Source of the DNA: Pseudomonadota bacterium
Lineage (GTDB): Bacteria; Pseudomonadota; Alphaproteobacteria; Sphingomonadales; CAKZYD01
Direction: 5' to 3'
Length of the DNA stretch: 64,000 bases
Assembly: GCA_049324415.1 (NCBI GenBank)
Contig: JBMOOS010000030.1
Span: 205,523 to 269,522 of the forward strand
A program made the position numbers and the translations under genes. Every line of letters starts with the position of its first letter. Positions within the stretch are counted from its first letter, which is position 1. Below, one piece after another: positions 686 to 24,431 of this stretch. Below the pieces are notes generated by a model. That model saw only the letters and a program-made list of their open reading frames with translations, was not told the DNA's origin and did not search any database.

Positions 686-1561
686 ATGACCGCAGCCAAT
701 CTTTCCCTTGAGATGGCGCCGCGCGACTATGTGCGCGCGGTGGTGGCGCGTTCGGGCACCTCCTTCTTCTGGGCCATGCGTCTGCTGGCGCGCCCCCGCC
801 GCGAGGCCAATTTCGCGGTCTACGCCTTTTGCCGGGAAGTCGACGACATCGCCGACGCGGCCAATCTTGATGCCCAAGCCAAGCGCCAGGGATTGGCTGA
901 ATGGCGCCGGGAAATCGTCCGCCTTTACGCCGGCGAAGCGCGCCATCCGGTCACCCGCGCGCTTGCCGGGCCGGTCGCCCGCTATGGCCTTAAATGCGAG
1001 GATTTCCTCGCCATCATCGAAGGCATGGAAATGGACGCCGATGGTCCCATCCGCGCCCCTTCGCTGGAGGCGCTCCTTTATTATTGCGACCGGGTGGCGT
1101 GCGCCGTCGGGCGCTTGTGCGTGCGCATCTATGGCGAGCCGGGCGAAGCGGGGACAAAGGTGGCCAACCATCTGGGGCTTGCCTTGCAGCTCACCAACAT
1201 CTTGCGCGACATCCCGGACGACGCCCGCATGGGCCGGCTTTACCTTCCCCGGGAAGTGCTGGTCGCCCATGGCGTTCCCACCGACGACGCCAACGCCGCT
1301 GCTTGCCACCCGCAGCTGCCGGCGGCATGCGCCGCCTTGGGGGCGCGAGCCGAAGCCGAATTCGCCGCGGCGAGAAAGGCGCTCGCCCATGCCGACCGGC
1401 AGCCTATGCGCCCCGCCATCGTCATGATGGAAGTCTATCATCGCGCGTTAAGGCGGCTTGCCGCGCGAAACTGGCGCGCTGAAACCCGGCACGGCCCCTT
1501 GACACGCGTGTCCGACACCCTCGCCAAGCTCGCCATCGCCGTGCGGCACGGGGTTTTTTAA
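686..1561 (+). CDS. hpnD: presqualene diphosphate synthase HpnD (squalene/phytoene synthase family)
   Basis: 291-aa ORF with an ATG start. Asp-rich motifs FCREVDDIAD and DIPDDARMGRLYLP. Located between hpnC and hpnE. Confidence 0.9.
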   Translation: MTAANLSLEMAPRDYVRAVVARSGTSFFWAMRLLARPRREANFAVYAFCREVDDIADAANLDAQAKRQGLAEWRREIVRLYAGEARHPVTRALAGPVARYGLKCEDFLAIIEGMEMDADGPIRAPSLEALLYYCDRVACAVGRLCVRIYGEPGEAGTKVANHLGLALQLTNILRDIPDDARMGRLYLPREVLVAHGVPTDDANAAACHPQLPAACAALGARAEAEFAAARKALAHADRQPMRPAIVMMEVYHRALRRLAARNWRAETRHGPLTRVSDTLAKLAIAVRHGVF

Positions 1562-1563
1562 AG

Positions 1564-2871
1564 GTGGCCCGGGTGCATGTCATCGGCGCTGGCCTCTCGG
1601 GCCTCGCCGCCGCCGTGCGGCTCAGCGAAAAGGGGGTGCCGGTCAGCCTTTACGAGCGCTCCCCGCAGGCCGGGGGGCGGGCCCGCTCCTACCATGACAA
1701 GCAGTTGGACATGGTCATCGACAATGGCAATCATCTGCTGCTGTCGGGCAATTGGGCGGCCATGTCATTGTTGGCCAGCATCGACGCCCTCGACAGCCTC
1801 ATCGGCCCCGACGAAGCGGTTTTTCCCTTCATCGACATGATGACGGGCGCCTCCTGGACCATCCGCTTCAACCAAGGCCGCTGGCCGACCTGGGTGTTCG
1901 ATGCCCGCGCCCGGGTGCCGGGAAGCCGCGCCAGCGATTATCTCCCGCTCGCCCTGATGGCCCTGGCGCGCGGCGGGGAGACGGTGGCCGACTATGTGGC
2001 CGCCGGCCACCGCCTCCAGGCCCCCTTGGTGGCGCCCTTGTGCATCGCCGTCCTCAATGCGGAGCCTAAGGTGGCGAGCGCCCGCCTGCTCGCCGCCGTG
2101 TTGCGCGAAACGGTGCTGAAGGGCGCCGACTTCTGTCTGCCGCGCATCGCCCGCGCCGGCCTTTCCGAAAGCTTTGCCCATCCCGCCTTGCGTTATCTTC
2201 ACAAGAAAGGGGTGGACATCCGCCTTGGCCAGCGGATAACCGCCTTTGAGACAAGGGCGGGGGCGCTTGCCGCCTTGCGGCTGGGCGAGGAACGGGTGGC
2301 GCTGGCGGACACCGACATGGCCATCCTCGCCGTCGCCCCCGAGGGGGCGCGGGAATTGCTGCCCGAGTTGCCGGTGCCGGAAGGCGCCGTGCCCATCGTC
2401 AACCTCCATTATCGCCTCCCGACGGCGCCCAGTCCCACTTGGGAAGCGCCCTTTCTTGGCCTTGTCGGCGGTCTTGCCCAGTGGCTTTTCCTGCGTGGGA
2501 GCGTCGCTTCTGTCACCATCTCGGCCGCCGAGGCGGTGGCGGATTGGGAGAGCGAGGCCCTGGCGATGCGGGTGTGGCGGGAAATCGCCCCGGCATTGGA
2601 CTTGCCTGCGGCTGAAATGCCGCCGGCGCGGGTGGTGAAGGAAAAGCGCGCGACCTTCCTGCAATCGCCAGCGAACGAAGCGCGCCGCCCCCATGCCCTG
2701 TCGCCGCTGGCCAACCTCATGCTGGCGGGTGATTGGACGGCGACCGGATTGCCGGCGACCATTGAGGGTTCGGTGCGTTCCGGCTACAAAGCCGCCGAGA
2801 TGTGTTTTGCAATGCTCACGCAGCGCCCCCTGCCGCCGGACTGGGCGAACGGGCGCGGAGGAAATAGCTGA
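1564..2871 (+). CDS. hpnE: hydroxysqualene dehydroxylase HpnE (FAD-dependent amine-oxidase/desaturase fold)
   Basis: 435-aa ORF with a GTG start 2 nt after the hpnD stop. N-terminal dinucleotide-binding fold VIGAGLSGLAAAVRL...GGR. The stop overlaps the shc start (TGATG). Confidence 0.85.
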   Translation: MARVHVIGAGLSGLAAAVRLSEKGVPVSLYERSPQAGGRARSYHDKQLDMVIDNGNHLLLSGNWAAMSLLASIDALDSLIGPDEAVFPFIDMMTGASWTIRFNQGRWPTWVFDARARVPGSRASDYLPLALMALARGGETVADYVAAGHRLQAPLVAPLCIAVLNAEPKVASARLLAAVLRETVLKGADFCLPRIARAGLSESFAHPALRYLHKKGVDIRLGQRITAFETRAGALAALRLGEERVALADTDMAILAVAPEGARELLPELPVPEGAVPIVNLHYRLPTAPSPTWEAPFLGLVGGLAQWLFLRGSVASVTISAAEAVADWESEALAMRVWREIAPALDLPAAEMPPARVVKEKRATFLQSPANEARRPHALSPLANLMLAGDWTATGLPATIEGSVRSGYKAAEMCFAMLTQRPLPPDWANGRGGNS

Positions 2872-4835
2872 TGGCTCACTCGGAAGGGGCGATGGCTGAC
2901 GCCCTTCACGCGGCAAACCGGGAAGAAGATTTGCTGGCGCAGGTGGAGGCGCGCATCGCGGAGGCATCCGCTGGCTTATCCCAGCGCCAGCAGGCCGACG
3001 GCCATTGGGTATTCGAATTGGAGGCCGACGCCACCATCCCGGCCGAATATATCCTCTTGATGCATTATCTTGATGAGCGCGACCCCGCCCTCGAGGCCGA
3101 CCTTGCCCGCTATTTGCGGCGCATCCAGGAAGACCATGGCGGCTGGCCGCTGTTCCATCGGGGGGAGGCCGACCTGTCGGCCAGCGTCAAGGCCTATTAT
3201 GCCTTGAAGCTTGCCGGCGATGATGAGGGCGCGTCCCACATGGCCCGGGCGCGGGAAGCGATTTTGCGCCTGGGCGGCGCGGAGAAGGCCAATGTCTTCA
3301 CCCGCTATGCCCTTGCCCTCTTTGCCCAGGTGCCCTGGCGGGCGGTGCCGGTGATGCCGGTGGAGCTGATGCTGATGCCGGGCTGGTTCCCCGTCCATAT
3401 GGGAAAATTTTCCTACTGGTCGCGCACGGTGATCGCCCCCTTGCTGGTGCTGGCGGCCTTGAAGCCGGCGGCGAGGAACCCCCGCGGCGTTCATGTAAGG
3501 GAGCTTTTCAAGACCCCGCCGGAAGCGGTCAAGACCTGGCATGTGAACCCCACGGGCAGGCTGTGGGGGCGGTTTTTTCTAGGCCTGGACAAGCTTTTAC
3601 GCATGGCCGAGCCCTATTTTCCCAAGGCCAGCCGGCAACAGGCCATCGCCCGCGCCTTCGACTTTTTTCTCGAACGCTTGAACGGCGAGGATGGCCTGGG
3701 CGCGATCTTCCCCGCGATGGTGAATGCAGTGATGGCGATGGAGGCGGCTGGCTATGCCAAAGACCACCCGCAGCTGGTGACCGCCAAGCGGGCCTTGCAA
3801 AAGCTCGTGGTTAAGCGCGCTGGCGAAAGCTATGTCCAGCCTTGCGTCTCGCCGATCTGGGACACCGGCCTTAGCGCCCATGCCATGATGGAGGCCGGCG
3901 GCGCGGCGGGCGAGAACGCGGCCCGCGCCTGCGCCTGGCTCAAGGCCAAGCAGATTTTAAACGTCAAGGGCGACTGGTCGTGGCAGGCGCCCGATGTGCC
4001 GCCGGGCGGCTGGGCCTTCCAATACGCCAACGACTATTACCCCGACGTCGATGACACCGCGGTGGTCGCCATGGCGCTGCACCGCAGCGGCGATGGGCAA
4101 TATACTGCCGCCATCGAGCGGGCCGAGGCGTGGATATTGGGCATGCAGTCATCCAATGGCGGCTGGGGCGCCTTCGACATCGACAACAACGCCGACTTCC
4201 TCAACAACATCCCCTTCGCCGACCATGGCGCGCTCCTCGACCCGCCGACCGCCGACGTTTCGGCGCGCTGCCTGTCTTTCCTAGCCCAGCTAGGCCATGG
4301 CCTGGACCATCCGGCGGTGGCGCGCGGGCTCGCTTATTTGCGCGCCGAGCAGGAAGCCGATGGCAGCTGGTTCGGCCGCTGGGGCACCAACTATGTCTAT
4401 GGCACCTGGTCGGTGCTGTGCGCCTTGAATGCCCTTGGGCTTGCCGCGGACGACCCCATGGTCCGCCGCGCGGTGGACTATCTCCTTGCCTTCCAGCAGC
4501 CGGACGGCGGCTGGGGCGAGGACGGCGCTACCTATTGGCGCGACAAGCGTGGCACGGCGAAGCAATCGACGCCCTCGCAGACCGCCTGGGCCCTGTTGGG
4601 GCTGATGGCGGCGGGCGAGGTCGACCATCCGGCGGTGGCGCGCGGCGTGCGCTACCTCATGCAAGGCAAGGTCGACAAGGGCAAGTGGGCCGAGCCCTGG
4701 TTCACCGCCGTCGGCTTCCCCCGGGTCTTTTACCTGCGCTATCACGGTTACAGCGCTTATTTCCCGCTCTGGGCGCTCGCCCGCTACCGCAATTTGAAGC
4801 GGGGCAATGCCAAGACCGTCGCTTGGGGCATGTAA
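2871..4835 (+). CDS. shc: squalene-hopene cyclase
   Basis: 654-aa ORF with repeated QW motifs (QQADGHW, QSSNGGWG, QEADGSWFGRWG, QQPDGGWGE). It carries the catalytic DxDD motif as DVDDTAVV. Confidence 0.95.
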   Translation: MAHSEGAMADALHAANREEDLLAQVEARIAEASAGLSQRQQADGHWVFELEADATIPAEYILLMHYLDERDPALEADLARYLRRIQEDHGGWPLFHRGEADLSASVKAYYALKLAGDDEGASHMARAREAILRLGGAEKANVFTRYALALFAQVPWRAVPVMPVELMLMPGWFPVHMGKFSYWSRTVIAPLLVLAALKPAARNPRGVHVRELFKTPPEAVKTWHVNPTGRLWGRFFLGLDKLLRMAEPYFPKASRQQAIARAFDFFLERLNGEDGLGAIFPAMVNAVMAMEAAGYAKDHPQLVTAKRALQKLVVKRAGESYVQPCVSPIWDTGLSAHAMMEAGGAAGENAARACAWLKAKQILNVKGDWSWQAPDVPPGGWAFQYANDYYPDVDDTAVVAMALHRSGDGQYTAAIERAEAWILGMQSSNGGWGAFDIDNNADFLNNIPFADHGALLDPPTADVSARCLSFLAQLGHGLDHPAVARGLAYLRAEQEADGSWFGRWGTNYVYGTWSVLCALNALGLAADDPMVRRAVDYLLAFQQPDGGWGEDGATYWRDKRGTAKQSTPSQTAWALLGLMAAGEVDHPAVARGVRYLMQGKVDKGKWAEPWFTAVGFPRVFYLRYHGYSAYFPLWALARYRNLKRGNAKTVAWGM

Positions 4836-4896
4836 TGCAGGTTTTTTTTCTGGCTCAGGCGCCTTTCCTGCCAGGGCATGGGGAAAGGCAGGACGC

Positions 4897-5565
4897 ATGA
4901 CCGGGCGCATCGGCATCGTCACCGGCATTGCCCAGGAGCACGCCCTCATCAAGGCCTGTAGCGAGGCGCTCGAGGAGGCCGCGCGTCCGCTTTTGCGCTG
5001 CGCCGGCATGGATGGCGAACGCGCGGCGCAGATGGCCGCCGACTTGATGGCGGAAGGGGTTGACGGGCTCTTGAGCTTCGGCGTCGCGGGGGGGCTCGAC
5101 CCTACCCTCAAGCCCGGCGACCTGGTGCTGCCCGAAGTGCTGTTAAGCCAGGGCGCGCCGCGCGCCTTGGCGGACAGACGCTGGCTCGACGCCGCGTTCG
5201 GGCTTGCCTCTCCCGCCAGCATCGGCCCCCTGGTGACGAGCGCCAGAGTGGTGACGACGGCAAGGGAAAAAGCCACCCTTTACCGCGCCAGCCACGCCGT
5301 GGCGGTGGATATGGAAAGCCACCCAATCGCCAGCTTCGCTAATTCCGCCGGCGTTCCCTTCATCGCCTTGCGCGTCATCATCGACCCCGCGCACCAGGAC
5401 CTGCCGGCGGCAGCGCTTGCCGGCAACGCGCCGCGGACCTTGGGCGCGCTTTTGCGCCGCCCACAACACTTGCCGGGCCTTATCCGCCTCGCCCGCAATA
5501 TGGCCAAGGCGAAGCGGACGCTAGGCCGCGTCGGACGTGACGGCTTGCCCCGCTTCGGCCTGTGA
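4897..5565 (+). CDS. hpnG: hopanoid-associated phosphorylase/nucleosidase HpnG
   Basis: ATG at 4897 is preceded by GGAAAGGCAGGA. PNP/UDP-phosphorylase-family sequence (MTGRIGIVTGIAQE...AVAVDMESH) in the conserved position after shc. The longer ORF from 4807 would overlap shc. Confidence 0.8.
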   Translation: MTGRIGIVTGIAQEHALIKACSEALEEAARPLLRCAGMDGERAAQMAADLMAEGVDGLLSFGVAGGLDPTLKPGDLVLPEVLLSQGAPRALADRRWLDAAFGLASPASIGPLVTSARVVTTAREKATLYRASHAVAVDMESHPIASFANSAGVPFIALRVIIDPAHQDLPAAALAGNAPRTLGALLRRPQHLPGLIRLARNMAKAKRTLGRVGRDGLPRFGL

Positions 5566-6675
5566 CGGATTGCTGGCGATGTCATCGAGCGCCTTTTTGA
5601 CATGGTCCTCGAAGTGATATTGCGCCGGGCGCTGCCGGGCGAGGGGGATTTCCGGGGCCATCGGCCCTTCGGTGCGAACCCCCTTGCGGGCGACCTTGAA
5701 AGCCTCGAGGGGGCGGTAGACCGCGTCGAGAACCGCCGTGGGCTCATAGCCGCAATGGGCCATGCAATTGGCGCATTTTTCGTAGTTTCCGGTGCCGTAG
5801 CTGTCCCAATCAGTGGTCTCCATCAGCTCCCTGAACGAGCCGACATAGCCTTCGCCGATAAGATAGCAGGGCTTTTGCCAGCCGAAGACATTGCGCGTCG
5901 GCATGCCCCAGGGGGTGCATTGGTAGCTGCGATTGCCGGCGAGGAAATCAAGGTAAAGGGCGGAATGGTTGAGCGTCCACTTCTTGCCCTTTCCTAAGCG
6001 GAAGATATCGCGGAACAATTCCTTGGTCTTGCGCCGGGTGAGGAAATGCGCCTGGTCGGGGGCGCGCTCATAGGCATAGCCCGGCGAAATGGTGACGCCG
6101 ACCCCGATTGCCTTCGCGAAATCGAGGAAGGCGGCGACGCGCTCCGGCGCCGCGCCATCGAAAATGGTGGCGTTGACATTGACCCTAAAGCCCTTGTCGT
6201 GGGCGATTTTGATGGCGCGCACCGCGCGGTCGAAGACGCCTTCCTGGCACACCGCCTTGTCATGCTCCTCGCGCAAGCCGTCGAGATGGACGGAAAAGAA
6301 GAGATAGGGCGAGGGCTGGAAGAGGTGCAGCTTTTTTTCCAAAAGCAGCGCGTTGGTGCACAGCGACACGAATTTCCTGCGGGCGATGATGCCGGCGACG
6401 ATGGCGCCGATATCCTTGTGCAACAGCGGCTCGCCCCCGGGAATGGCGACCATCGGCGCGCCGCATTCATCGACCGCCGCCAGGCAATCCGCCACCGACA
6501 AGCGCTGGTTGAGAATGGGCGCGGGGTAATCGATCTTGCCGCAGCCGGCGCAGGAGAGGTTGCAGCGGAACAGGGGCTCGAGCATCAGGACCAGGGGATA
6601 GCGCTTGTTGCCCTTCAGCCTTTGCTTGAAGACATAGGCGCCGACACGGATCTGCTGGATTAAGGGAACACCCAC
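5521..6675 (-). CDS. hpnH: adenosylhopane synthase HpnH (radical SAM)
   Basis: Radical-SAM cluster motif CNLSCAGCGKI and an HpnH-like N-terminus (VPLIQQIRVGAYVFKQRLKGNKRYPLVLMLEPLFRCN). The start is set at GTG 6675, 7 nt after GAAGAAGGA; TTG 6705 is the alternative. The 3' end overlaps hpnG convergently by 45 nt. Confidence 0.9.
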   Translation of the reverse strand: MGVPLIQQIRVGAYVFKQRLKGNKRYPLVLMLEPLFRCNLSCAGCGKIDYPAPILNQRLSVADCLAAVDECGAPMVAIPGGEPLLHKDIGAIVAGIIARRKFVSLCTNALLLEKKLHLFQPSPYLFFSVHLDGLREEHDKAVCQEGVFDRAVRAIKIAHDKGFRVNVNATIFDGAAPERVAAFLDFAKAIGVGVTISPGYAYERAPDQAHFLTRRKTKELFRDIFRLGKGKKWTLNHSALYLDFLAGNRSYQCTPWGMPTRNVFGWQKPCYLIGEGYVGSFRELMETTDWDSYGTGNYEKCANCMAHCGYEPTAVLDAVYRPLEAFKVARKGVRTEGPMAPEIPLARQRPAQYHFEDHVKKALDDIASNPSQAEAGQAVTSDAA

Positions 6676-6708
6676 CGGTTCAATCCTTCTTCGTTCAAAT
6701 CTCAAGCA

Positions 6709-7683
6709 TCAACCAGCACGCGCCGCGTCGCGCAATTGCGGCGGCAGGTTGAAACGGACGTTCTCGACAATGCCGTCGAGGGTTTCGACGGCGTTAAAGC
6801 CAAAGCCGCGCAGCCGGTCAATCAATTCCTCGACCAGCGCCTCGGGGGCGGAAGCGCCAGCGGTGATGCCGACGCTGCTCGCCCCGACAAGCCAGGCGGG
6901 GTCAAGAAGCGCGGCATCGTCCAGCAAATAGGACGGGCGCTGCATTTCCGCGCCGATCTCGCGCAAACGGTTGGAATTGGAGGAATTCTTGGCGCCGATC
7001 ACCAGGATGACATCGGCTATTTCCGCCAGCTTGCGCACCGCCGACTGGCGGTTTTGCGTAGCATAGCAGATGTCCTTGGTATCTGGGCCGGCGATGGCGG
7101 GAAAGCGCTTTTTCAAGGCCTCGATGATGTCGCGGGTGTCATCGACCGAAAGCGTCGTTTGCGTCACATAGGCAAGCTTGTCGGCATCAGTGACGCGCAG
7201 GGCGGCGACATCGTCGAGCGAGCCGACAAGATGGACGGCGCCATCGATCTGGCCGAGGGTGCCAATGACCTCCGGGTGCCCGGCATGGCCGATGAGGATG
7301 ACTTCATAGCCCTGGGCCGCGTAACGCTGGCCTTCCTTATGGACCTTGGCGACCAGTGGACAGGTGGCGTCGAGCGCGGCAAGTCCCCGCGTTGTGGCCG
7401 CGCTGACGACGCGGCGGGCCACCCCATGGGCGGAGAAAATGGCGACCGCGCCAGCCGGGATTTCGTCCACTTCCTCGACGAAAATCGCCCCCTTGCGGCG
7501 CAAATCGTCGACCACCCTTTTGTTGTGGACGATTTCATGGCGCACATAGACCGGCGCGCCATATTTATCGAGCGCCCGCTCGACGATGTCGATGGCGCGC
7601 ACGACGCCGGCGCAAAACCCCCGGGGCTGGGCGAGGAGAATGCGTTTCTCGGCGGGCATGCCGTTGAAATGCCGCTCGCTCAT
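6709..7683 (-). CDS. ispH: 4-hydroxy-3-methylbut-2-enyl diphosphate reductase (IspH/LytB)
   Basis: LytB family sequence ([28 protein letters not shown]). ATG at 7683 sits behind GGGAGGAG. The ORF extension to 7809 lacks support. Confidence 0.9.
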
Positions 7684-7789
7684 GGGCTCCTCCCTTGCCG
7701 TATTTGGCGCGACGCAGACAAACCGCAGTGCGCAGCCGCCCAAACACCCCATTTTCTCACAGATGGGCGAGATAACCCGTTGACGCAAC

Positions 7790-10417
7790 TCAACTCTTTG
7801 TGCGGGCACGCTGCTCCACCCAGGCGATCATGCCGGGCAGAACCACCAGGGTGCACACAAGCGTGAAAAATATGGCGATAAGAAGGAGTTCGCCCATGCT
7901 TGCCGTGCCCCGATGCGCGGAGACCGCCAGGGTGCCGAAAGAGGCCAGCGTCGTCAACGCCGAAAGAAGGACGGCGCGCGGCGTCGAGGTGGCGAGGAGA
8001 TCCGGGCCTTCCCCTTCATGGGCGCGGGCCACAAGGTGGATGCCGCTGTCCACCCCAAGGCCGATGAGCAGGGGCAGGACGATCACATTGGCGAAGTTGA
8101 ACGGCAGGGGAAGCAGCACGGAAGCGGCGATGGTCAAGGCTGCGGCGAGGGCGATGGGAAGAAGAATAAGTCCAACCTGGCGCACATCGCGCAGCGTCAA
8201 GTAAAGAAAGCCGGCGACGAGGAAGGCGGCGAGCGCGGTCGCCTCGAGCATGGCGGCCCGCACCACCTTGCCAGCGCCGACGATCTGCACCGGGCTGCCG
8301 GTGACCACCGGCGCGACGGCGGCGATCGTGTCGACGAAGCGTTCAAGGTCTCGTTCATCGCGCGGCGCGCCTGCGGGAAAAACCTCGATCCGATGGCTGC
8401 CATTCGCCGCGACATAGCGTTCGGCGATATCTTGGGGGACATCTTCAAGCGTCACCGGCGCCGCCGCCATGCTGTCGGCCAGCCCCGCCATCGCCTTGGG
8501 CCAATAGGCGAAGATGGCGGCGCGCAATTGGCCAAGCAGCGCTGGGGTGAGGGGGTTCTTGCTTAGGAAATGGCCAAGGGCGTGCGCCAGGCGCTCACCC
8601 GGCGCGTCGTTTCCGGCATTGACGGCATATTCGGCGATGCTGTCGGCGAGGCGGCGCAAGGCCTCGGCATCGGCGGGATTGGCTTGCGGCTCATAGGCCG
8701 TGGCGCCTTGCAAGACCGGTGTCAGGAGGAGGGCCAGCGTATCGATCCGGGCGAGCTTTTCCTCCTGGCCAGTGGGCACGAAGCTGGCCAGCCGCAGGAT
8801 GCGGTGAACCGCCGGCATGGCCTTGAGCTGGGCGGCCAGGGCATCGGCCTCCGCCGCCGAACCGGCAAGCGCCTGCACCGCGTAGGGCGAGGCATCGCGA
8901 TCCTCGACCAGCCGGTAATAGGCCTTGACCGAAGGGGCGGTAGGGTCCTTGAGGCGGATGGGATCGGCGTCGAAACGGGCGTTGGTGGCGATAAAGGCGG
9001 CGGCAAGGCCAATGACCAGCGCCGTCATGGTGATGCCCCGGCCATGGCGCTCGATGGCGCGGGCAAGGCCCTGATGGGCGGGCTCGGCGCGCCGGCTTGT
9101 CTTGCCTGGAAGGACGCGCAGGAAAGCCGGCAGCAGGGTGAGGGAGGCGATCAGGGAAATGAAGATGCCGGTGCCCGAGATGATCCCCAGTTGCGCCAGG
9201 CCCACATAGGCGGTGGGGACGAAGGCGAAGAAGGCAAGGGCGGTGGTGGGCGCGCACAGGGCAAGGGCGGCGCCAGTCCCCGAGGCGGTGCGGAAAAGCG
9301 CGTCAGGCGCGGATTTGCCGCTCGTGCGCTCCTCGCTATAGCGCAAGGCGAAATGGACGCCAAAGTCGATGCCAAGGCCAATGAAAAGGACCGCGAAGGC
9401 GACCGAGATGATGTTGAGATAGCCGATCGCCATGGTGGCGAAAGCGGCGGTCCAGACAAGGCCGATGAGGAGGGTCAAGAGAGTCGCCGCCACCAGCTTG
9501 AGGGAGCGCAGGCCAAGGCCCAGGATGAGCGCCACCAAAAGGGTCGATAAAATGCCGGCAAGGGCGGCGCCGTCGCTGACGCTCTTCAGTTCCTCGGCAT
9601 TGAGGGCGATCTTGCCGGTGAAATCGATTTCGACATGCTGCGCCATGCCTTGCAGGGCTTGCCCGGCGGCGGTCCGCGCCGCGTCGAGCGCCGCCTTGGC
9701 GGGGTGAAGGCCGGCGGCATCCAGCACCGGCTGGGCGATGATGAAGCGTTCGGCTGCGCCATCGCCGGCGTTTTCAGGGTCGAACATCGCCGTCCAGGAA
9801 AGGGGGCGGGAAGTGCCCTCGTTGAAGGCGGTGAAAACCGGAAGGAGGGCTTCGAAAGCGACGTCAAGCGTTCCTTTATTGGCGTTTCCATCGCCTTCCC
9901 GCAGTTTGTCCACGCCTTCGCGCAGCAGGTCGAAAAAGCGGGCAAGGCTGGGCTCCTCCGCCATCGCGGCAAGAACCGGCTGGGCGCTGGCCAAGCGGTC
10001 GGTGAGGCGTTCCAGTTCTTCCTCGCTGAGGAACAACAGCCCGTTCCGGGCGAAAAACGCCCCCGCCCCCGGGGTGTAGACGGACTTGAAATGGAGAGGA
10101 TCGGCGCGTAAGGCCTTGGCCAGGCGATCGCGCGCGTCATCGGCCGCTTCGGGGACGGGCGCCCGGATGACGATGACCAGGCTGTCGGCGATTTGCGGGA
10201 AATCCTCGTTGAAAGCGCGATAGACCTGGCGAAAGGGAAGCCTGGGATCGATCATCTCGTCGGTATCGGTATGCACGCTGAGGGTGCGTGCGACATAGAC
10301 GGTTAATCCTGCGCTCAGGATGAAAACGGCAATAAGCAAGGGCCAGGCATGGCGGTGACAGGCAAGGGCAAGGCGCCCCATGAGACGGGCAAAAGGGCTT
10401 AAGGGGGGCATGGGCAT
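7790..10417 (-). CDS. hpnN: hopanoid transporter HpnN (RND/MMPL superfamily)
   Basis: About 875 aa with two blocks of transmembrane helices and two large soluble loops, typical of RND/MMPL proteins. It sits between ispH and hpnM as in other hopanoid clusters. The start is taken at ATG 10417 (10411 also possible). The ORF extension to 10561 would overlap hpnM. Confidence 0.8.
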
Positions 10418-10441
10418 GGCGATCGAGGAGGCGTTATCCAC

Positions 10442-11077
10442 ATGAGGCGGCGATTTTTCCAGCGCTTGAGCGGCATCATCATGGCGTTTTTGGCATTTGC
10501 CGGCCCGCCTGTCCATGCCACGGCGGCAAATAGCCCCGAAATGGTGGTGGGGCGTTTCCACGAGGCGCTACTTGCGGCCATGAAAAACGCTGACGCCTGG
10601 TCCTATGAGCAGCGGCGGGACAGCCTTGCCCCCATCGTCGCCCAAAGCTTTGATTTTGCCTTCATGGTGCGTTTTGCTTCCGGAGTCGCCTGGAAGGCGT
10701 TCGACGAGGCCCAGCAGGCGCGCGTCAGCGCCGCCTTCGCCGATTTTACCCTCGCCAACTATGCCGCCCGCTTTCACGGCTATTCGGGGCAGCGCTTCGA
10801 AACCCTCGATACCGTGCCGCAGCGCGGCGGACGGGTGCTGGTGCGCAGCCAATTGGTGAAGGCCGACGGCGAAGCGGTGCGCCTCGATTATCTGATGAAC
10901 CCGTCAGGCGATGGCTGGGCGATCATGGACATTTTTCTCGATGGCAAATTCTCCGAGCTTGCCCGCCGCCGCGCCGAGTTCGCTCCCCTTTTACGCGATC
11001 AAGGCGCCGAGGGCCTCATCGCCGCCCTTGAAGACCGTGCCCAGCGTCTGGCCGCCGGCGACGACAGCGCGGGTTAG
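10442..11077 (+). CDS. hpnM: HpnM, periplasmic MlaC/Ttg2D (toluene-tolerance) family lipid-binding protein
   Basis: Sec signal peptide MRRRFFQRLSGIIMAFLAFAGPPVHA. MlaC/Ttg2D-like sequence. Divergent from hpnN, with only about 24 bp between the two starts. Confidence 0.7.
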   Translation: MRRRFFQRLSGIIMAFLAFAGPPVHATAANSPEMVVGRFHEALLAAMKNADAWSYEQRRDSLAPIVAQSFDFAFMVRFASGVAWKAFDEAQQARVSAAFADFTLANYAARFHGYSGQRFETLDTVPQRGGRVLVRSQLVKADGEAVRLDYLMNPSGDGWAIMDIFLDGKFSELARRRAEFAPLLRDQGAEGLIAALEDRAQRLAAGDDSAG

Positions 11078-11147
11078 CGCTTTTTTTGCATTGCGCGCGC
11101 GCCTGGGCTATGAGCCGCGCTTGCAAAAAGCCTGGAGCTGACCACCG

Positions 11148-12257
11148 ATGGCAGAGGCGCGGCGCTTGACCCATCCCCTGTGCGGGGCCGACCTTAAGAC
11201 CTTGATCACCGTGCTGGCGCGCGGCGGCGTCGGCCGCCGCGGCCTTGCCCAGGCCACCATCGCCCTCTTTTCAGCCGTGGGCCGCCTTCCCTTTACTTTA
11301 AGCGAATGGGCCTATGTGGAAGCGCGGCGGGGACGCCAGACGCCCTTCCCGCCGCCGGTTTTCATCCTCGGCCATTGGCGCTCGGGCACCACCCATCTTT
11401 ACAACCTGATGGCGCGGGACAAGCAATGGGGCACCGTTTCCCCCTTCGCCGCGGGGCTGCCCTGGGAGGTCTTGAGCCTTGGCCGGCTATGCCGCCCGCT
11501 GCTGAAAAAAAGCCTGCCCGAACACCGCTATATCGACAATGTCGCGGTCGCGGAAGACAGCCCGCAGGAAGACGAGATCGCCCTTGCCAACATGACCCCG
11601 CTGTCCTTTTACCACGCGCTTTATTTTCCCCGGCGGTTCCACGAATTCTTCGATGCTGGCGTGTTTTTCGACGGCGTGCCCCAAGCGCGCATCGAAGGCT
11701 GGCAGCGCTGCTTGAGCGACCTTTACCTGCGCCTTGCCTTGGACCAGGGCGGGCGGCGGCTCGTCATCAAAAACCCGGTCTACACCGCGCGGCCGGCTTT
11801 GCTGCGGCGGATGTGGCCGGAGGCCGGCTTCATCCACATCCACCGCAATCCCTATAAGGTCTTCGTCTCGATGCGCAATTTCTGGCGCGCCTTATTGCGG
11901 GAGTTCGCGCTGGCCGATTATGGCCATGTGGATATCGACGCCGTCGTCTTTTCCACCTACCGGCGGATGATGGACGCCTTTCTGGCCCAGACCAAGGACT
12001 GGCCAGAAAACAGGCTCGTCGAGCTGCGCTTTGAAGACCTGCAAAGCGATCCCGTGGGGCAAATGGGCAAGGTTTACGATAGGCTGGGCCTTGCCGGCTT
12101 TGATACGGCAAAACCGTCTTTCGAAGCCTATCTCGAAAAGGTCAAGGATTACCGGAAAAACACGTTCGCCCTGCCGGCGGACCTCATCGCAAGGATCGAG
12201 CGGGAATGGGCGCCCTATATCGCGCGCTGGGACTATGCGCCGCCGCAAGCAGCTTGA
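11148..12257 (+). CDS. PAPS-dependent sulfotransferase family protein
   Basis: 369-aa ORF. 5'-phosphosulfate-binding loop GHWRSGTTHLYNL and 3'-phosphate-binding region IHIHRNPYKVFVSMRN. Same strand as hpnM and hpnA. Confidence 0.75.
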   Translation: MAEARRLTHPLCGADLKTLITVLARGGVGRRGLAQATIALFSAVGRLPFTLSEWAYVEARRGRQTPFPPPVFILGHWRSGTTHLYNLMARDKQWGTVSPFAAGLPWEVLSLGRLCRPLLKKSLPEHRYIDNVAVAEDSPQEDEIALANMTPLSFYHALYFPRRFHEFFDAGVFFDGVPQARIEGWQRCLSDLYLRLALDQGGRRLVIKNPVYTARPALLRRMWPEAGFIHIHRNPYKVFVSMRNFWRALLREFALADYGHVDIDAVVFSTYRRMMDAFLAQTKDWPENRLVELRFEDLQSDPVGQMGKVYDRLGLAGFDTAKPSFEAYLEKVKDYRKNTFALPADLIARIEREWAPYIARWDYAPPQAA

Positions 12258-13216
12258 CCCTTTCGCCGGTCGAAGCGGCCTGGCAATGCCGCCATGCGCG
12301 CCTCATCGACGCGGTGCGCGGCGAAGCGGTGACGGGGGTCGAGGATATCGCCATCGATGACGCGGCGGGCCTTGCCTATCTGGCCGCCTATGACCGGCGC
12401 GCCGAGAAACTGGGGGCCATCTACCCCTTGCCGGTGACGGCGCTCGAGCAGGAGACGCTGGTCGCAACCCCGCTTGCCGCTTCGGTCCCCATCAAGCCCC
12501 ATGGCATCGCCTTGAGCCGCGACGCGATGGGCGGGCACGCCCTGCTGGTGGTCAATCGCGCAACCTCGCCCGCCGCCATCGACCGCTTTCGCATCACCGC
12601 TTCAGGGCTGGTGCGCGAGGCGCGGCTTGCCGTCCCCGAGCTGTGCCATGCCAACGACCTCGCGCTCGCCGCCGATGGCGCTGTCCTTGTCACCAATGAC
12701 CGGGCGGCCTGCGGCGGCCTAAGGCAAAAGCTGGAGGCGGTCCTTGGCCTTGCCACCGGCAGCCTGCAGCGCTGGGACGGGGCGGGTTTGCGCACACTCC
12801 GCGGCCGAATCGCCTTCGCCAACGGGATCGCCATCATGGGCGATGAGATTTTCGTCGCGGCGACCCGCGATACGGCTGTCTATCGCTTGGATAGCGAAGG
12901 CCGGCTCAAGGGACGCATCGCCTTGCCCGGAGCGCCGGACAATTTGAGCGTCGGGCCCGATGGCACGCTTTACGCTGCGGCGTTCCCCAGTTTGTTCGGC
13001 TATGCCCGCTTTCGCGCCAACCCCAAGGCGCGGGACGCGGCGAGGAGCCTGATCCTTGCCATCGACCCGGCGAGCGGCGTGGTGGAGCGATTGCCGCTGG
13101 ACGGCGCGCGCCTTCCTGCCGGCGCCACCGTGGCGGCGCGGCTTGGCGGCTGGCTGCTGGTGGGCGCCGCCTATGACTGGGGCCTTGGCCTGTGCCGGGA
13201 AGGGGAGGCGTCATGA
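12206..13216 (+). CDS. paraoxonase/arylesterase- or SMP-30-like six-bladed beta-propeller protein (possible lactonase)
   Basis: 336-aa ORF with PON-like segments (GVEDIAIDDAAGLAYLAA, FANGIAI, PDNLSVGPDGTLYAAAF). The start is uncertain: ATG 12206 overlaps the sulfotransferase by 52 nt. The stop overlaps the hpnA start (ATGA). Confidence 0.5.
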   Translation: MGALYRALGLCAAASSLTLSPVEAAWQCRHARLIDAVRGEAVTGVEDIAIDDAAGLAYLAAYDRRAEKLGAIYPLPVTALEQETLVATPLAASVPIKPHGIALSRDAMGGHALLVVNRATSPAAIDRFRITASGLVREARLAVPELCHANDLALAADGAVLVTNDRAACGGLRQKLEAVLGLATGSLQRWDGAGLRTLRGRIAFANGIAIMGDEIFVAATRDTAVYRLDSEGRLKGRIALPGAPDNLSVGPDGTLYAAAFPSLFGYARFRANPKARDAARSLILAIDPASGVVERLPLDGARLPAGATVAARLGGWLLVGAAYDWGLGLCREGEAS

Positions 13217-14196
13217 GCACAGCGCTCGTCACCGGCGGCGCCGGCTTCATCGGCCGCCATCTGGTGCGCCAGTTGCACGCCCGGGGGACGACGGTGCGGG
13301 TGCTCGATCCCGCCGCCAGCCCGCGCCTTTTTCCCGCGGGGGTTGACGCGCGGGAGGGCTCGATCCTCGATGACCGCGCGTTGGCGGCGGCGATGCAAGG
13401 GGTCGAAACGGTCTATCACCTCGCTGCCATCGCTCACTTGTGGCGCCGTAACCGCGATGATTTCGAGCGGGTCAACCATCAGGGCACCCGCCTCGTCCTC
13501 GATGCGGCGCGCCGCGCGGGGGCGGCGCGGGTCATCGTCACCTCGAGCGAAGTCATTTTGCGCGGCTGGGATGAGGCAAGCGATGTTCCCTTGCGGGAAG
13601 ACGCGCCGTCCCCGCCCCTGGCCGCCATGGCGGGGCCCTATAGCCGGTCGAAACACCGCGCGGATAAGGCGGCGCGGGACGCCGGCGCCATCAGCCTTTA
13701 TCCCACCGTGCCGGTGGGCCCCGGGGATGACGCGATGACCGCGCCCACCGCCATGCTGGCGCTGTTCGCCCGCCGCCCGCCGCCGGCTTATCTTGCCACC
13801 ACCTTGAACTTGGTGCCGGTCGAGGATGTGGCGGCGGCCCATATCCTGGCGGCGGAGAAGGCGCGCGCTGGCGAACGCTTCCTCATCGGCGGCGAGGATT
13901 GGCCGATGGCGCGGCTCCTTGACTTTCTGGCGCGCCATCTCGGGCGGCCGATGCCCCGGCGTCAAATTCCTTACTCCCTTGCCCGCTTAAGCGCGGGCGT
14001 GGCGCAAGGGATGGCGCGTTTCACCAAGCGGGCGCCCGTGGCCACGGTCGAGGGGGTGCGCCTTGCCAAGCACGGCTGGCGGGTGGAAAGCGACAAGGCG
14101 CGCGCCGCCCTGGGCTGGACGGCGGGGCCGGTCGCTGAGGCGCTGTTGCGTGCCTTAGCCTGGCTTGAGGGGGAGGGGAAGCCCCTCCAGCCGTGA
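13213..14196 (+). CDS. hpnA: hopanoid-associated NAD-dependent sugar epimerase/dehydratase (HpnA-like)
   Basis: Rossmann motif VTGGAGFIGRHLV and catalytic YxxxK (YSRSK). ATG 13213 sits behind GGGGAGG and overlaps the upstream stop. Confidence 0.75.
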   Translation: MSTALVTGGAGFIGRHLVRQLHARGTTVRVLDPAASPRLFPAGVDAREGSILDDRALAAAMQGVETVYHLAAIAHLWRRNRDDFERVNHQGTRLVLDAARRAGAARVIVTSSEVILRGWDEASDVPLREDAPSPPLAAMAGPYSRSKHRADKAARDAGAISLYPTVPVGPGDDAMTAPTAMLALFARRPPPAYLATTLNLVPVEDVAAAHILAAEKARAGERFLIGGEDWPMARLLDFLARHLGRPMPRRQIPYSLARLSAGVAQGMARFTKRAPVATVEGVRLAKHGWRVESDKARAALGWTAGPVAEALLRALAWLEGEGKPLQP

Positions 14197-14476: not shown

Positions 14477-14532
14477 CTAATGGTGCGATTCCAACGGATG
14501 GATTTATCCGTTTGGGAAAAGTGGACCACTAG
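14477..14532. mobile_element. 56-bp palindromic MITE-like element (chimeric copy)
   Basis: Sequence CTAATGGTGCGATTCCAACGGATGGATTTATCCGTTTGGGAAAAGTGGACCACTAG. The left end matches the B-type terminus and the right end the A-type terminus of the elements at 35612-35849. It is bounded by CTAA and CTAG. Confidence 0.8.
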
Positions 14533-15892
14533 CCGTGCCTGCCTTATCCTGGATCTCGGGAGGGAGGCCGGCGCGTTCAAGCGCCTGGCTTTGGCGCGTT
14601 CGCAGGGTATCGGCGGCAAAGCCGGCGATGATCTCCTCGAACAGGCGGTGCCAGTTGACCCGCGCTTGCAGGCGCGCGAACACCCCGCCAAGGCCGATGG
14701 CGGCCCGGTCCATGAAGACGAATTCGCGCGGCGGGGTGATGGGGCCCAGCGCCTGCAGCCGGCGCCGCACCTTCATCGCCTGCTCCCGGCCGTAAAGCCC
14801 AAGCTTGTCGGTGGCGGCGATGAGGCGCGGGCGGTCTTCGAGGAGCGGCCCGTAAAGGAATGCCGCCCAGATGTTGAGGGTCTCGATCAGCGGCTTTGAC
14901 AGCTTCCTGAAGCCCCAGGTCTCGTAGGCGTGAACCGCCAGCGCCGCGTCATTGTCGCGCAAAGCGTGGTAAAGGTCGATGACGCCGCCGACGAATGCCG
15001 GGGCGAAGATGCGCACGCAGCCGAAATCGAGAAGGTTGAGGCTGAAGTCATCGGCCAGCGTGTAGTTGCCCAGATGCGGGTCGCCGTGGATGACGCCGAA
15101 ATGGTGAAAAGGCACATACCAGGCGCGAAAAAGCGTGGCGGCGATGTGGTTGCGCGTCGCTTCATCGGCGGCAGATAGGCTAAGCAAGGGCCGGCCTTCC
15201 AGCCAGGTCATGGTAAGAAGACGGTTAGTGCTTAAGGAAGGCAGCGGCTCCGGGACATGGATGTGCGGCGTCTCCGCCAGCATATGACGGTACAGCGCCA
15301 TATGCTTAGCTTCCAAGGCATAATCCAGTTCCTCGCGCAGCCGGGCGGCGATTTCGGCGGCGACCTCGCGGGTGTCGATGGACGGGTCGTGGCGCCGAAA
15401 GAGGCCGAGCACGAGGCCCAGCTGACGCAAGTCCGCCTCGATGACCGAGGCCATGTCGGGATATTGCAGCTTGACGGCAAGGTCCGCGCCTTCCAGGCTC
15501 CGCGCCCTGTGAACCTGGCCCAGCGAGGCGGCGGCGGCGGCGCTGTGCTCGAAATAAGCAAAGCGGGCTTGCCAATCGGGGCCCAATTCAGCGCCCATGC
15601 GCCGTTTGACGAAGGGCCATCCCATGGCTGGCGCCTGGGCCTGCAATTGCGTAAATTCCCGGGCATAGTCGGCGGGCAGGGCGTCGGGAATGGTGGCAAG
15701 AAGCTGCGCCACCTTCATCGCCGGGCCCTTAAGCCCCCCCAAAGCCGCCCGCAAATCGGCGGCCAGCGCCGCGTCGGAGCGGCGCCGACCCAAAAGCTGC
15801 CCGCCAGCGGCGCGCGCGGCGATGCCGCCCAGAGCGCCAGCCAGGCCGGCATAGCGGCGCATGCGGCCCGCCAAACGGTTTTCCTCGTCCAC
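14504..15892 (-). CDS. ABC1/UbiB-family atypical protein kinase
   Basis: 462-aa ORF with ABC1 motifs (GPAMKVAQLLATIPDALP, ASLGQVHRA, AVKLQYPD, HGDPHLGN, LLDFG). The last 9 codons (ASGPLFPNG) and the TAA stop lie inside the palindromic element. Confidence 0.85.
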   Translation of the reverse strand: MDEENRLAGRMRRYAGLAGALGGIAARAAGGQLLGRRRSDAALAADLRAALGGLKGPAMKVAQLLATIPDALPADYAREFTQLQAQAPAMGWPFVKRRMGAELGPDWQARFAYFEHSAAAAASLGQVHRARSLEGADLAVKLQYPDMASVIEADLRQLGLVLGLFRRHDPSIDTREVAAEIAARLREELDYALEAKHMALYRHMLAETPHIHVPEPLPSLSTNRLLTMTWLEGRPLLSLSAADEATRNHIAATLFRAWYVPFHHFGVIHGDPHLGNYTLADDFSLNLLDFGCVRIFAPAFVGGVIDLYHALRDNDAALAVHAYETWGFRKLSKPLIETLNIWAAFLYGPLLEDRPRLIAATDKLGLYGREQAMKVRRRLQALGPITPPREFVFMDRAAIGLGGVFARLQARVNWHRLFEEIIAGFAADTLRTRQSQALERAGLPPEIQDKAGTASGPLFPNG

Positions 15893-16028
15893 CTGGGACC
15901 TCTTTAATCATGCGCCCGGACCCATAATTTATGGCGCGCCTTGCTTTTGTCCAATTCTTAACAATTGTCTCGTAATGATACGTCTGCTTATCCCAAGCAC
16001 GGCACGGAATTTTCTAGCGAAGGCAGCG

Positions 16029-17555
16029 ATGACGCAGACCATATTAATCGTCGACGATGAAGCGACCCAGCTCCGCGTCATCGGCGCGGTCACCGAGCGG
16101 GAGGGCTACCAAACCCGCTATGCGGTCAATGGGCAGGAGGCGATCGATATCTTGTCCAAGCCCGATGCGTCGGGTGTTGACCTCGTCATTCTTGACCTGT
16201 CGATGCCGCGCATCAGCGGTCTTGACGTGTTGAAGCGCATCAAGCCGAAGCACCCGGACTTGCCGTGCATTGTTCTGACCGCGCATTCCAGCATTTCCAA
16301 CGTCGTCGATTCGATGCGTGCCGGGGCCAGCGATTTTCTGGTCAAGCCCGCTTCGGCCGAGCGCATCCGCACCGCCATTCGCAACGTCCTCGAGGCCCAG
16401 GAGCTGACCGGCGAATTGCGCCCGCTCACGGAAAAAATCGACGAGACGCTGCAATTTTCCGAACTGGTGGGGGCGAGCGAGGCGATGAAAGCGGCGGTCG
16501 CCGTCGCCCGCAAGGCGGCGGCGTCCAACATCCCTGTCCTGGTGGAAGGGGAATCGGGCGTCGGCAAGGAGCTGTTCGCGCGGGCGATCCAAGCGTCGAG
16601 CGCGCGCGCGCGCGGGCCCTTCATCACCGTCAATTGCGGCGCCATCCCCGCCAATCTCGTGGAAAGCATCCTTTTCGGCCATGAAAAAGGGGCCTTCACC
16701 GGCGCCAGCGAGCGTCATGTGGGTAAATTCGTCGAAGCCAATAAAGGCACCATTTTTCTCGATGAAATCGGCGAGCTGCCACTCGATACCCAGGTCAAGC
16801 TGTTGCGGGTGCTGCAGGAAAGCGAGGTCGAGGCCATCGGCGGGCGCGAGACGGTGAAGGTCGATGTGCGCGTCATCTCCGCCACCAACCGCGACCTGGC
16901 GCGGCAGGTGAGCGCCGGAGAATTCCGCGAGGATCTCTATTACCGGCTGAACGTCTTTCCGGTGCGCATCCCGCCCTTGCGGCGCCGGCGCGAGGATATC
17001 CCGTCGCTGGTCAAGCACTTCATCGCCCGCATTTCCAAGGCGGAAAACATCGCGGTCAAAGACATCGAGCCCGGCGCCATGGAGCTGCTGCAGAACTATG
17101 AATGGCCGGGCAATGTCCGGCAGTTGCAAAACGCCATCTTCCGCGCCGTGGTGCTGAGCGACCATGAAGTGCTGACGGTCGCGGATTTCCCCCAGGTGCA
17201 GTTGCAGACCGGCGGCGCCGTCTTCACCGCCGACCAGGCCGCGCCCGGCGCTGGCGCGGCCCCTGGCGAGACCCATGTCGTCGGCGGCCTCGCCCTGTTC
17301 GATAAGGACGGCCATATCCGCTCGCTGAGCGAGGTGGAAGCGGAAGTCATCCGCCGCGCCATGGCGCGCTATAAGGGGCATATGTCGGAAGTGGCCCGCC
17401 GCCTCGGCATCGGCCGCTCGACGCTCTATCGCAAGGTGGCCGAGCTCAACCTCGATGGCGACGCGGACGCCGAGAGGGATCCCGATAGGGGCTCCGGCGC
17501 CGTAATTCCGACGCATTCTCACCCCACCGGTTCGCCCCATAACGGCATCAGCTGA
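16029..17555 (+). CDS. sigma-54-dependent response regulator (REC + AAA+ + Fis-type HTH; NtrC family)
   Basis: REC domain (ILIVDDE...LVILDLSMP). Walker A GESGVGKE, the GAFTGA motif, and Walker [10 protein letters not shown]-terminal [23 protein letters not shown] at 16029. Confidence 0.9.
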
Positions 17556-24407: not shown

Positions 24408-24431
24408 GGGGGTTTTCCTTAAAGATGCCAC

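Follow-up and report, generated by a model that had tools for sequence, protein, structure and literature searches.

A conserved cassette of sulfotransferase, paraoxonase-like and HpnA-like genes linked to hopanoid loci: a probable lipid-tailoring module

Introduction

Three adjacent genes in a 64,000-nucleotide stretch of alphaproteobacterial DNA, hereafter the window (Sphingomonadales lineage CAKZYD01; assembly GCA_049324415.1, contig JBMOOS010000030.1, positions 205,523–269,522), encode a sulfotransferase (ST), a paraoxonase (PON)-like beta-propeller, and an HpnA-like short-chain dehydrogenase/reductase (SDR). These genes form one translationally coupled cassette that is conserved as a three-gene unit, and its linkage to hopanoid (hpn) genes is far above chance placement, although many of the loci share ancestry. 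The cassette is probably a hopanoid-pathway tailoring and export-linked module, apparently unreported, and we hold this view with moderate confidence. In specific terms, we judge it somewhat probable that the cassette tailors the polar side chain of an extended (C35) hopanoid supplied by HpnH and HpnG; we infer the substrate, the order of the steps, and the product.

Hopanoids rank among the major membrane lipids of bacteria and also serve as key molecular fossils. Two of the three enzyme types of the cassette are unprecedented in hopanoid biology, and the cassette predicts sulfation as a new head-group chemistry as well as periplasmic processing tied to lipid export. If these predictions are true, a lipid class has been systematically overlooked by hopanoid inventories and biomarker calibrations, hpnA gains a biochemical context, and a natural bacterial role is defined for the paraoxonase family.

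Results

Organization of the cassette

The ST gene (11148–12257, + strand) encodes 369 amino acids with a conserved three-helix N-terminal extension of approximately 65 residues. The PON-like gene (12206–13216, +) encodes 336 amino acids, including a signal peptide of approximately 24 residues, and its product is a six-bladed beta-propeller that is predicted to be periplasmic and is a putative Ca2+-dependent lactonase/esterase. The SDR gene (13213–14196, +) encodes an NAD-type extended SDR of 327 amino acids. The ATG start of the PON-like gene at 12206 gives a 52-nt overlap with the ST open reading frame (ORF), and the SDR ATG at 13213 overlaps the PON-like TGA (13214–13216) to form an ATGA junction; both overlaps are exactly those of the original prediction. 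That prediction had also described two co-directional genes packed between hpnM and an HpnA-like epimerase, and profile scans confirmed this context at the same coordinates. The hpnM gene (10442–11077, +) encodes an MlaC-like periplasmic lipid-binding protein (TIGR03481, 181 bits, exceeding the cutoff) and is separated from the co-directional ST gene by a 70-nt spacer.

The remaining hopanoid genes lie upstream. The hpnN gene (7790–10561, −), which is divergent from hpnM, encodes the resistance-nodulation-division (RND)-type hopanoid transporter (TIGR03480, 910 bits). Pfam and NCBIfam matches identified an SQS_PSY gene of the hpnC/D type (686–1561, +), hpnE (1564–2871, +), shc (2871–4835, +), hpnG (4807–5565, +), hpnH (5521–6705, −), and ispH (6709–7809, −). 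The region 686–14196 of the window is a complete hopanoid locus, cassette included.

The start codon of the PON-like gene was placed by comparison with homologs. The N-terminus of the window protein, MGALYRALGLCAA, aligns with MAALFRSLGLCAG of locus L012 and with the signal peptide of L010. Since the homologs carry an N-terminal signal peptide that aligns with that of the window protein, the ATG at 12206, which had been put forward as a putative start, is supported. The alternative TTG start at 12254, which would give a TTGA overlap, was rejected because it would delete the signal peptide common to all homologs.

Conservation of the cassette and linkage to hopanoid genes

We scanned species-level genomes with an alignment of the ST and searched the flanks with the window proteins and family hidden Markov models. 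The ST family occupies at least 575 loci in one-genome-per-species contigs, 80 of which were examined; 39 loci carried at least 9 kb on both sides (fully flanked), and linkage to hpn genes was counted within 10 kb of the cassette. The first two contexts of PON homologs, L001 (no hpn neighbours) and L003 (beside an HpnN-like transporter), both had ST, PON and SDR genes in that order. The SDR gene was present in 73 of the 80 loci. The PON gene was present in 63, or in 61 of the 73 loci whose downstream sequence was long enough to judge, and always lay on the same strand directly 3′ of the ST gene. The full trio was found in 33 of the 39 fully flanked loci, and the 4-nt overlap between the PON stop and the SDR start recurred in distant loci such as L045, L059, and L015.

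At least one core hpn gene was present in 32 of the 39 fully flanked loci and at least three in 28. The original prediction had staked itself on orthologs being linked to hopanoid genes elsewhere, and this linkage was recovered in several gene orders. With < and > giving gene direction, these were as follows: hpnN< hpnM> ST PON SDR in the window, L013, L016, L067, and L082; TamB< TamA< ST PON SDR (PhyH) hpnB< hpnC hpnD hpnE hpnG hpnH< ispH< in Hyphococcus, Amphiplicatus, and Parvularculaceae; SDR< hpnM< ST> PON> hpnN< shc> hpnG> hpnH< in Azospirillum; and hpnD hpnE shc hpnG hpnH< ispH< ST PON SDR hpnN< in metagenome-assembled genomes (MAGs) of Caulobacterales. A head-to-head arrangement without PON, SDR< ST>, was found in cyanobacteria, Caenispirillum, and an Ectothiorhodospiraceae MAG, and the Verrucomicrobiota locus L081 carried the two-gene tandem ST> SDR>, also without PON. 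An HpnN-like gene flanked the cassette in 23 loci, and shc was within the flanks of 13 of 88 loci. These results indicate that the core consists of the ST and the HpnA-like SDR, and that the PON gene is a common alphaproteobacterial addition. The tailoring reading of the original prediction is therefore supported in its hpn linkage and not in its unit of two genes, since the SDR belongs to the cassette and the conserved core is ST plus SDR.

Fe(II)/2-oxoglutarate (2OG) dioxygenases of three Pfam families recurred across lineages, directly next to the cassette or within it: PhyH (L045:13219–14085), 2OG-FeII_Oxy_5 (L011:8236–8841), and 2OG-FeII_Oxy_3 (L087:12434–13108). Their recurrence suggests an optional hydroxylation before sulfation.

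Sulfotransferase

The ORF at 11148–12257 is a sulfotransferase of the type that uses 3′-phosphoadenosine 5′-phosphosulfate (PAPS). The protein matched Pfam Sulfotransfer_3 (PF13469) with 115.4 bits (cutoff 27; E = 5.9e-33), and its translation contains both PAPS-binding motifs, GHWRSGTTHLYNL and IHIHRNPYKVFVS, in agreement with the identity and the motifs originally assigned to it. The 5′-phosphosulfate-binding loop GHWRSGTTHLYN (G75–N86) and the 3′-phosphate-binding residues R233 and S241 were invariant among 23 homologs with 51–69% identity. From its sequence, the ST looks cytoplasmic, without a signal peptide, and catalytically intact. A word-seeded search gave more than 2167 homologous proteins, more than 100 of them at 51% identity or above.

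The AlphaFold model of the ST had a mean confidence (pLDDT) of 91.8. The top folds in the PDB were Stf9 and Stf1 (TM-score approximately 0.65, E approximately 1e-10 to 1e-11), followed by CurM and olefin-synthase ST domains and then by tyrosylprotein sulfotransferases. Retinol dehydratase and LGS1 were also among the structural matches.

PON-like propeller

PON1 is a lactonase for lipophilic lactones that acts at a lipid surface. The PON-like protein alone gave no Pfam or NCBIfam match at E ≤ 0.001 and did not reach the threshold of PF01731; several of its homologs do match PF01731. A phmmer comparison with PON1 gave 1e-6, a profile of 24 homologs reached PON1 at E = 5e-41, and hhalign against a human PON1 sequence gave a probability of 99.7%. 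The AlphaFold model (pLDDT 91.6, pTM 0.88) was searched with Foldseek, and the ten best PDB matches were all PON1 (TM-score 0.76, E approximately 1e-18), with strictosidine synthase and SMP-30-type lactonases trailing at 1e-10 or weaker. These results indicate that the ORF at 12206–13216 is a true PON-family six-bladed propeller. The protein had been described as resembling paraoxonase/SMP-30 lactonases; the paraoxonase part of that description stands on the PON1 profile and the fold, and the SMP-30/gluconolactonase identity was rejected because such structures rank far below PON1. Clustering at 50% identity divided the family into 1210 clusters (E ≤ 1e-30).

The residues of the window protein correspond to those of PON1 as follows: C28 to C42, E46 to E53, D47 to D54, H99 to H115, R118 to H134, N150 to N168, D151 to D169, D165 to D183, N206 to N224, D245 to D269, N246 to N270, and C330 to C353. 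The catalytic Ca ligands E46, N150, N206, D245, and N246, together with D47, were kept in 65–66 of 66 cassette-linked sequences. D151, which belongs to the structural Ca site, was kept in 51 and H99 in 59 of them. The propeller-closing pair C28 and C330 was kept in 64–66 of the 66, and to judge from this conservation a C28–C330 disulfide probably forms; the family has four conserved cysteines in all, with an extra pair (C147 and C169) beyond the PON1-type pair. In six cassette-linked proteins Ala replaces the residue equivalent to His115, and in six Ser replaces that equivalent to Asp183, with all Ca ligands kept, and such proteins may constitute a sub-group with altered catalysis. A lipobox precedes the first conserved Cys in at least 40 of the 66 sequences, and the remainder have Sec-type signal peptides. 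The PON-like protein is therefore predicted to be periplasmic, and often a lipoprotein in other lineages.

HpnA-like SDR

The best NCBIfam model for the SDR was TIGR03466 (HpnA), followed by SdmB and OleD. Ten other ST-linked SDRs also had HpnA as the top model each time (225–357 bits, all below the cutoff of 367.65), and those nearest to the cutoff came from the PON-less cyanobacterial, verrucomicrobial, and gammaproteobacterial loci. The GxxGxxG motif, D32, S111, Y143, and K147 were invariant in 78 sequences. The invariant Asp (D32) after beta-2 predicts the use of NAD rather than NADP. The best PDB sequence match was 3wj7 (8.5e-40), which we take to be Gox2253 of Gluconobacter oxydans, an assumption consistent with the cited title. 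The SDR looks cytoplasmic, without a recognizable signal peptide, and appears catalytically intact.

The gene hpnA was named in 1998. A 2025 survey of hopanoids in Alphaproteobacteria counts hpnA, hpnB, and hpnL among the genes without an established function (PMC12583986). An acidobacterial study proposed that hpnA possibly acts between ribosylhopane and bacteriohopanetetrol (BHT), and noted that Burkholderia can make BHT without hpnA and that Rhodopseudomonas lacks the gene (PMC5462960). In cyanobacteria, HpnA co-occurs phyletically with shc, hpnH, and hpnG (PMC5862535).

Azospirillum brasilense Sp7 and Skermanella

Three species with hpnH in the 2025 alphaproteobacterial survey, Azospirillum brasilense Sp7 and Skermanella aerolata among them, yielded no products on Rohmer degradation, and adenosylhopane was the only hopanoid detected in A. 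brasilense Sp7 (PMC12583986). The Sp7 cassette lies inside the hpn cluster (SDR< hpnM< ST> PON> hpnN< shc>). This locus, L089, is on plasmid ABSP7_p1 (NZ_CP012915.1, 171664–196725), such that the whole hpn cluster is carried by a 1.75-Mb secondary replicon; the PLSDB record of ABSP7_p1 has no gene annotation at the cluster. The ST gene occupies 183,664–184,725 of this replicon. Skermanella sp. TT6, a congener of S. aerolata, has the cassette beside hpnM and hpnN. These data fit, circumstantially, an end product that standard methods have overlooked.

Discussion

Proposed pathway

The NAD-type SDR would work on the cytoplasmic side of the inner membrane, where it would oxidise or epimerise a side-chain carbinol, and the most economical guess is the conversion of the ribosylhopane lactol to its ribonolactone ("ribonylhopane"). 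The PAPS-dependent ST would then O-sulfate a side-chain hydroxyl to give an anionic hopanoid; in some lineages the neighbouring Fe/2OG dioxygenase might create the hydroxyl beforehand. Export would proceed via HpnN and HpnM, or via TamAB-linked routes in other lineages. At the membrane surface, the periplasmic Ca2+-dependent PON-like protein would act on an ester-type bond of the exported lipid, either opening a lipophilic lactone or hydrolysing or transferring another ester. Any opening of a lactone would occur after export, since the PON-like protein is predicted to be periplasmic and the ST and SDR have no signal peptides. The original prediction had proposed a sulfated bacteriohopanepolyol and an opened ribonolactone, which we keep as putative products. 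Ribonylhopane, a lactone, has been seen in mutants of R. palustris, and the oxidising and ring-opening enzymes are unknown (PMC4263297).

The original prediction held that the named hopanoid gene set has no sulfotransferase or propeller, and the known tailoring genes and the 2025 surveys indeed contain neither. A 2025 study of microsynteny around shc and hpnN reported hpnL, hpnM, hpnS, and hpnT, with HpnM, HpnS, and HpnT predicted to be periplasmic, and no sulfotransferase or PON-like gene (PMC12324291); the 2025 alphaproteobacterial survey likewise makes no mention of ST or PON-like genes (PMC12583986). A wider and more tentative proposal, which we consider doubtful as a whole, is that many Alphaproteobacteria, and some cyanobacteria and Verrucomicrobiota through the ST and HpnA-like pair, make anionic sulfated extended hopanoids or hpn-pathway lipids that are remodelled by PON in the periplasm, which would explain both the "missing" bacteriohopanepolyols of A. 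brasilense and Skermanella and the function of hpnA. Sulfates would be expected to escape positive-ion liquid chromatography-mass spectrometry (LC-MS) and to block periodate (Rohmer) cleavage, and would therefore account for the "missing" bacteriohopanepolyols if the products are indeed sulfated hopanoids.

Evidence against a hopanoid substrate and alternative explanations

Several observations weigh against the tailoring of a hopanoid side chain. No hpn gene was found within 10 kb of the cassette in L001, L024, L039, L046, and the Rhodothalassium locus L087. In Rhodothalassium salexigens L087 the order is LpxR> ST> PON> 2OG-oxygenase> SDR> TamA> TamB with overlapping boundaries (L087:8781–20710; the SDR ends at 14115 and the co-directional TamA starts at 14112). 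Many of the loci are phylogenetically related, so that the counts overstate the number of independent events. The window SDR scored 271.6 bits against TIGR03466, below the HpnA equivalog cutoff, and "HpnA-like" is therefore the accurate label. A dehydrogenase–lactonase couple would need an intervening export step, since the ST and SDR look cytoplasmic and the PON-like protein is predicted to be periplasmic. The position of PON1 His134 is occupied by Arg in 62 of the 66 PON-like sequences, including R118 of the window, so that the His115–His134 dyad is not conserved and the mechanism may differ from that of the PON1 lactonase; this Arg could serve as a binding site for an anion, for example a sulfate or carboxylate group. 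None of the annotated ORFs of the window is a gene for PAPS synthesis or sulfate uptake. Finally, our literature search found no paper describing sulfated hopanoids or the ST-PON-SDR cassette; the papers that matched hopanoid with sulfotransferase or with paraoxonase appear unrelated by title and abstract, and the supplements of two 2025 hopanoid genomics papers gave no matches.

A further point against a hopanoid substrate concerns squalene-hopene cyclase. The genera or species Hyphococcus, Amphiplicatus metriothermophilus, Marinicaulis, Litorimonas, and Rhodothalassium are listed without shc in the 2025 survey (PMC12583986), and all five names label cassette-bearing loci in our set. The loci named Hyphococcus, Amphiplicatus, and Rhodothalassium include isolates or RefSeq genomes; those named Marinicaulis and Litorimonas come from MAGs only. 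If the list is right, a hopanoid cannot be the substrate in those genera, and their conserved HpnH would lack its known substrate. In Hyphococcus and Amphiplicatus, shc was not found within approximately 37 kb around the cluster; in Amphiplicatus, a single 37-kb stretch without shc holds hpnN, hpnM, ispH, hpnH, hpnG, hpnE, hpnD, hpnC, and hpnB as well as the cassette. Seventeen fully flanked loci had hpnE and hpnG with no shc in the flanks, and the two genes were adjacent in every such cluster that was mapped. The clusters of Hyphococcus, Amphiplicatus, and Parvularculaceae MAGs (L015, L045, L059, L067, L085, and L086; for example, L085:2464–19808) carry hpnC, hpnD, hpnE, hpnG, hpnH, and ispH without shc, and hpnE abuts hpnG at the position that shc occupies in the window; Amphiplicatus has hpnN and hpnM in addition. 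The HpnH of the genera listed without shc is 66–76% identical to that of the window. Either shc is located elsewhere or is divergent in these genomes, or the pathway has another substrate there. Under the wider proposal above, the pathway to sulfated lipids may even run without a canonical squalene-hopene cyclase in Parvularculaceae-type genomes.

TamA and TamB function in outer-membrane assembly and lipid transport. It is conceivable, though we consider it rather unlikely, that the cassette serves as a general module for modifying outer-membrane lipids and would sulfate, oxidise, or hydrolyse a non-hopanoid envelope lipid (for example, a component of lipid A or lipopolysaccharide, an ornithine lipid or glycolipid, or a non-cyclised isoprenoid), the adjacency to hpn genes resulting from a shared role in outer-membrane lipid homeostasis and transport. 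The R. salexigens operon with TamA-TamB next to LpxR, the arginase and FemAB-like neighbours in L001, and the cassette-bearing genera reported without shc argue for such a module, as do the Rhodospirillales-type loci, in which the cassette lies closest to hpnN and hpnM, which are transport and not biosynthetic genes. TamA also flanks the cassette in 27 loci and TamB in 23, and both are divergent in Parvularculaceae-type loci (L045:3918–9559); this adjacency, however, may be synteny inherited in two related basal orders. Moreover, the cassette abuts biosynthetic genes in many loci, namely ispH and hpnH in L005–L008 and hpnB, hpnC, hpnD, hpnE, hpnG, and hpnH in the Parvularculaceae types, and the SDR is HpnA-like in each lineage tested. 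The genera listed without shc keep HpnH together with hpnG, hpnN, and hpnM beside the cassette, which makes a product of the hpn pathway the simplest substrate even there. The loci without nearby hpn genes and the listing of genera without shc nevertheless leave an envelope-modification module, the alternative named in the original prediction, in contention.

The sulfate might instead be a transient leaving group installed on a side-chain hydroxyl. An elimination would follow, or a cyclisation giving, for example, an anhydro or ether side chain, or a transfer to an acceptor that consumes no ATP, a step that the PON-like protein would possibly catalyse in the periplasm, and no stable sulfated hopanoid would accumulate. 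The folds that rank next after Stf9 and Stf1 are the ST domains of CurM and olefin synthase, which prepare a hydroxyl for elimination by activating it, and retinol dehydratase and LGS1, also among the matches, carry out sulfation-assisted terpenoid reactions; a periplasmic enzyme without ATP would presumably gain from a pre-activated substrate, and sulfated hopanoids are unreported despite decades of hopanoid analysis. However, the closest folds are mycobacterial Stf enzymes that make stable sulfolipids, the CurM-type matches are weak (TM-score 0.39–0.42), a thioesterase-like partner is absent, PON-family enzymes are not known for sulfate displacement, and positive-ion mass spectrometry and periodate cleavage could have missed sulfates. 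We regard a transient sulfate as improbable. It is very improbable that the genes are chance neighbours, that is, unrelated metabolic genes placed by accident between hpnM and the epimerase in the window genome. A weak terminator-like hairpin with a 5-bp stem lies 3′ of hpnM (11066–11081), by which the cassette may be its own transcription unit; the hairpin was rejected as a terminator or regulatory element between hpnM and the ST gene because its stem is short and its fold is no better than that of shuffled sequences (z = −0.94). In addition, order, strand, and overlaps are kept in dozens of genomes, and the linkage to hpn genes recurs in different arrangements. Side-chain tailoring of an extended hopanoid is the reading that we favour.

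Other features of the window

The divergent genes hpnN (−) and hpnM (+), taken as their longest ORFs, share 120 nt at their 5′ ends (10442–10561); at least one of the true start codons must therefore lie further inside, and the promoter region that the two genes share is shorter than the list of ORFs suggests. The hpnM–ST spacer contains a perfect 8-nt inverted repeat, TTTTTGCA and TGCAAAAA, with 31 nt between the arms (11083–11129). Since the spacer folds no more stably than shuffled sequences, this repeat, if functional, is likelier to be a protein-binding site than a terminator.

Directly past the cassette, the window carries a UbiB/ABC1 atypical kinase gene (14504–15892, −) and a sigma-54 response regulator gene (15861–17555, +). 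These neighbours are not conserved beside the cassette elsewhere and were left outside it; the exceptions are sigma-54 regulators near the cassette in the Verrucomicrobiota locus L081 and in Rhodothalassium L087 (NtrX), a recurrence that is probably coincidental. The region 23046–43636 is of a polyamine-catabolism type, with three glutamine-synthetase-like paralogs (23046–24431, 24432–25787, and 32530–34011), a DAO oxidoreductase, an ABC transporter and solute-binding protein, a class III aminotransferase, an amidohydrolase, and an aldehyde dehydrogenase. Between 44000 and 56000 the G+C content falls from approximately 0.64 to 0.59; this part, which may be acquired DNA, encodes an RND efflux system (OEP, HlyD, and AcrB; 45020–50762), an S1/P1 nuclease, a LuxR-type regulator, and a TonB-dependent receptor.

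Comparison with known systems

Like the cassette, the hopanoid tailoring and transport genes hpnI/J/K, hpnO, hpnP, hpnR, and hpnM/N/S/T are accessory, cluster with shc, hpnH, and hpnN, and occur in some producers only; none of them encodes a sulfotransferase or a PON-family protein. The ST-linked SDRs resemble HpnA (TIGR03466) in the extended-SDR type, the GxxGxxG motif, the S/Y/K residues, and the hopanoid neighbourhood of most loci. The cassette SDR family has Asp-Pro where 3wj7 has Val-Arg.

The pairing of a dehydrogenase gene with a gene for a Ca/metal propeller lactonase, as seen here for SDR and PON, is also found in pairs of a sugar 1-dehydrogenase and a lactonase such as XylB/XylC of Caulobacter, and the same logic applied to the ribosylhopane lactol would give first a lactone and then an acid. 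The xylonolactonase 7plc was among the fold matches of the PON-like protein. XylC, however, is an SMP-30-type cytoplasmic protein, whereas the cassette propeller is of the PON type and predicted to be periplasmic; furthermore, the cassette has an extended-type SDR and includes a sulfotransferase.

PON1 (1v04, 3srg, and others) shares with the PON-like protein the six-bladed propeller, the five catalytic Ca ligands, D54 and D169, His115, Asp183, and the Cys42–Cys353 pair, all of which have counterparts, as well as an N-terminal hydrophobic secretion or anchor segment. The two proteins are approximately 22% identical, and the PON-like protein differs in being bacterial, periplasmic by prediction, often a lipoprotein, and encoded in an operon with the ST and SDR.

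The mycobacterial Stf1 (2zq5) and Stf9 (2z6v) resemble the ST in fold, in the Sulfotransfer_3 family, and in the PAPS-binding loops. The ST is 17–18% identical to these solved structures, has its own conserved N-terminal helical extension, and occurs in another phylum and another gene context. Stf3 sulfates omega-hydroxy-dihydromenaquinone-9, a hydroxylated isoprenoid lipid; a possible likeness to the ST is suggested by the automatic Stf3-type names given by JGI to several close homologs. The "hydroxylate then sulfate" logic of Cyp128 and Stf3 is paralleled by the dioxygenase neighbour in some of the cassette loci.

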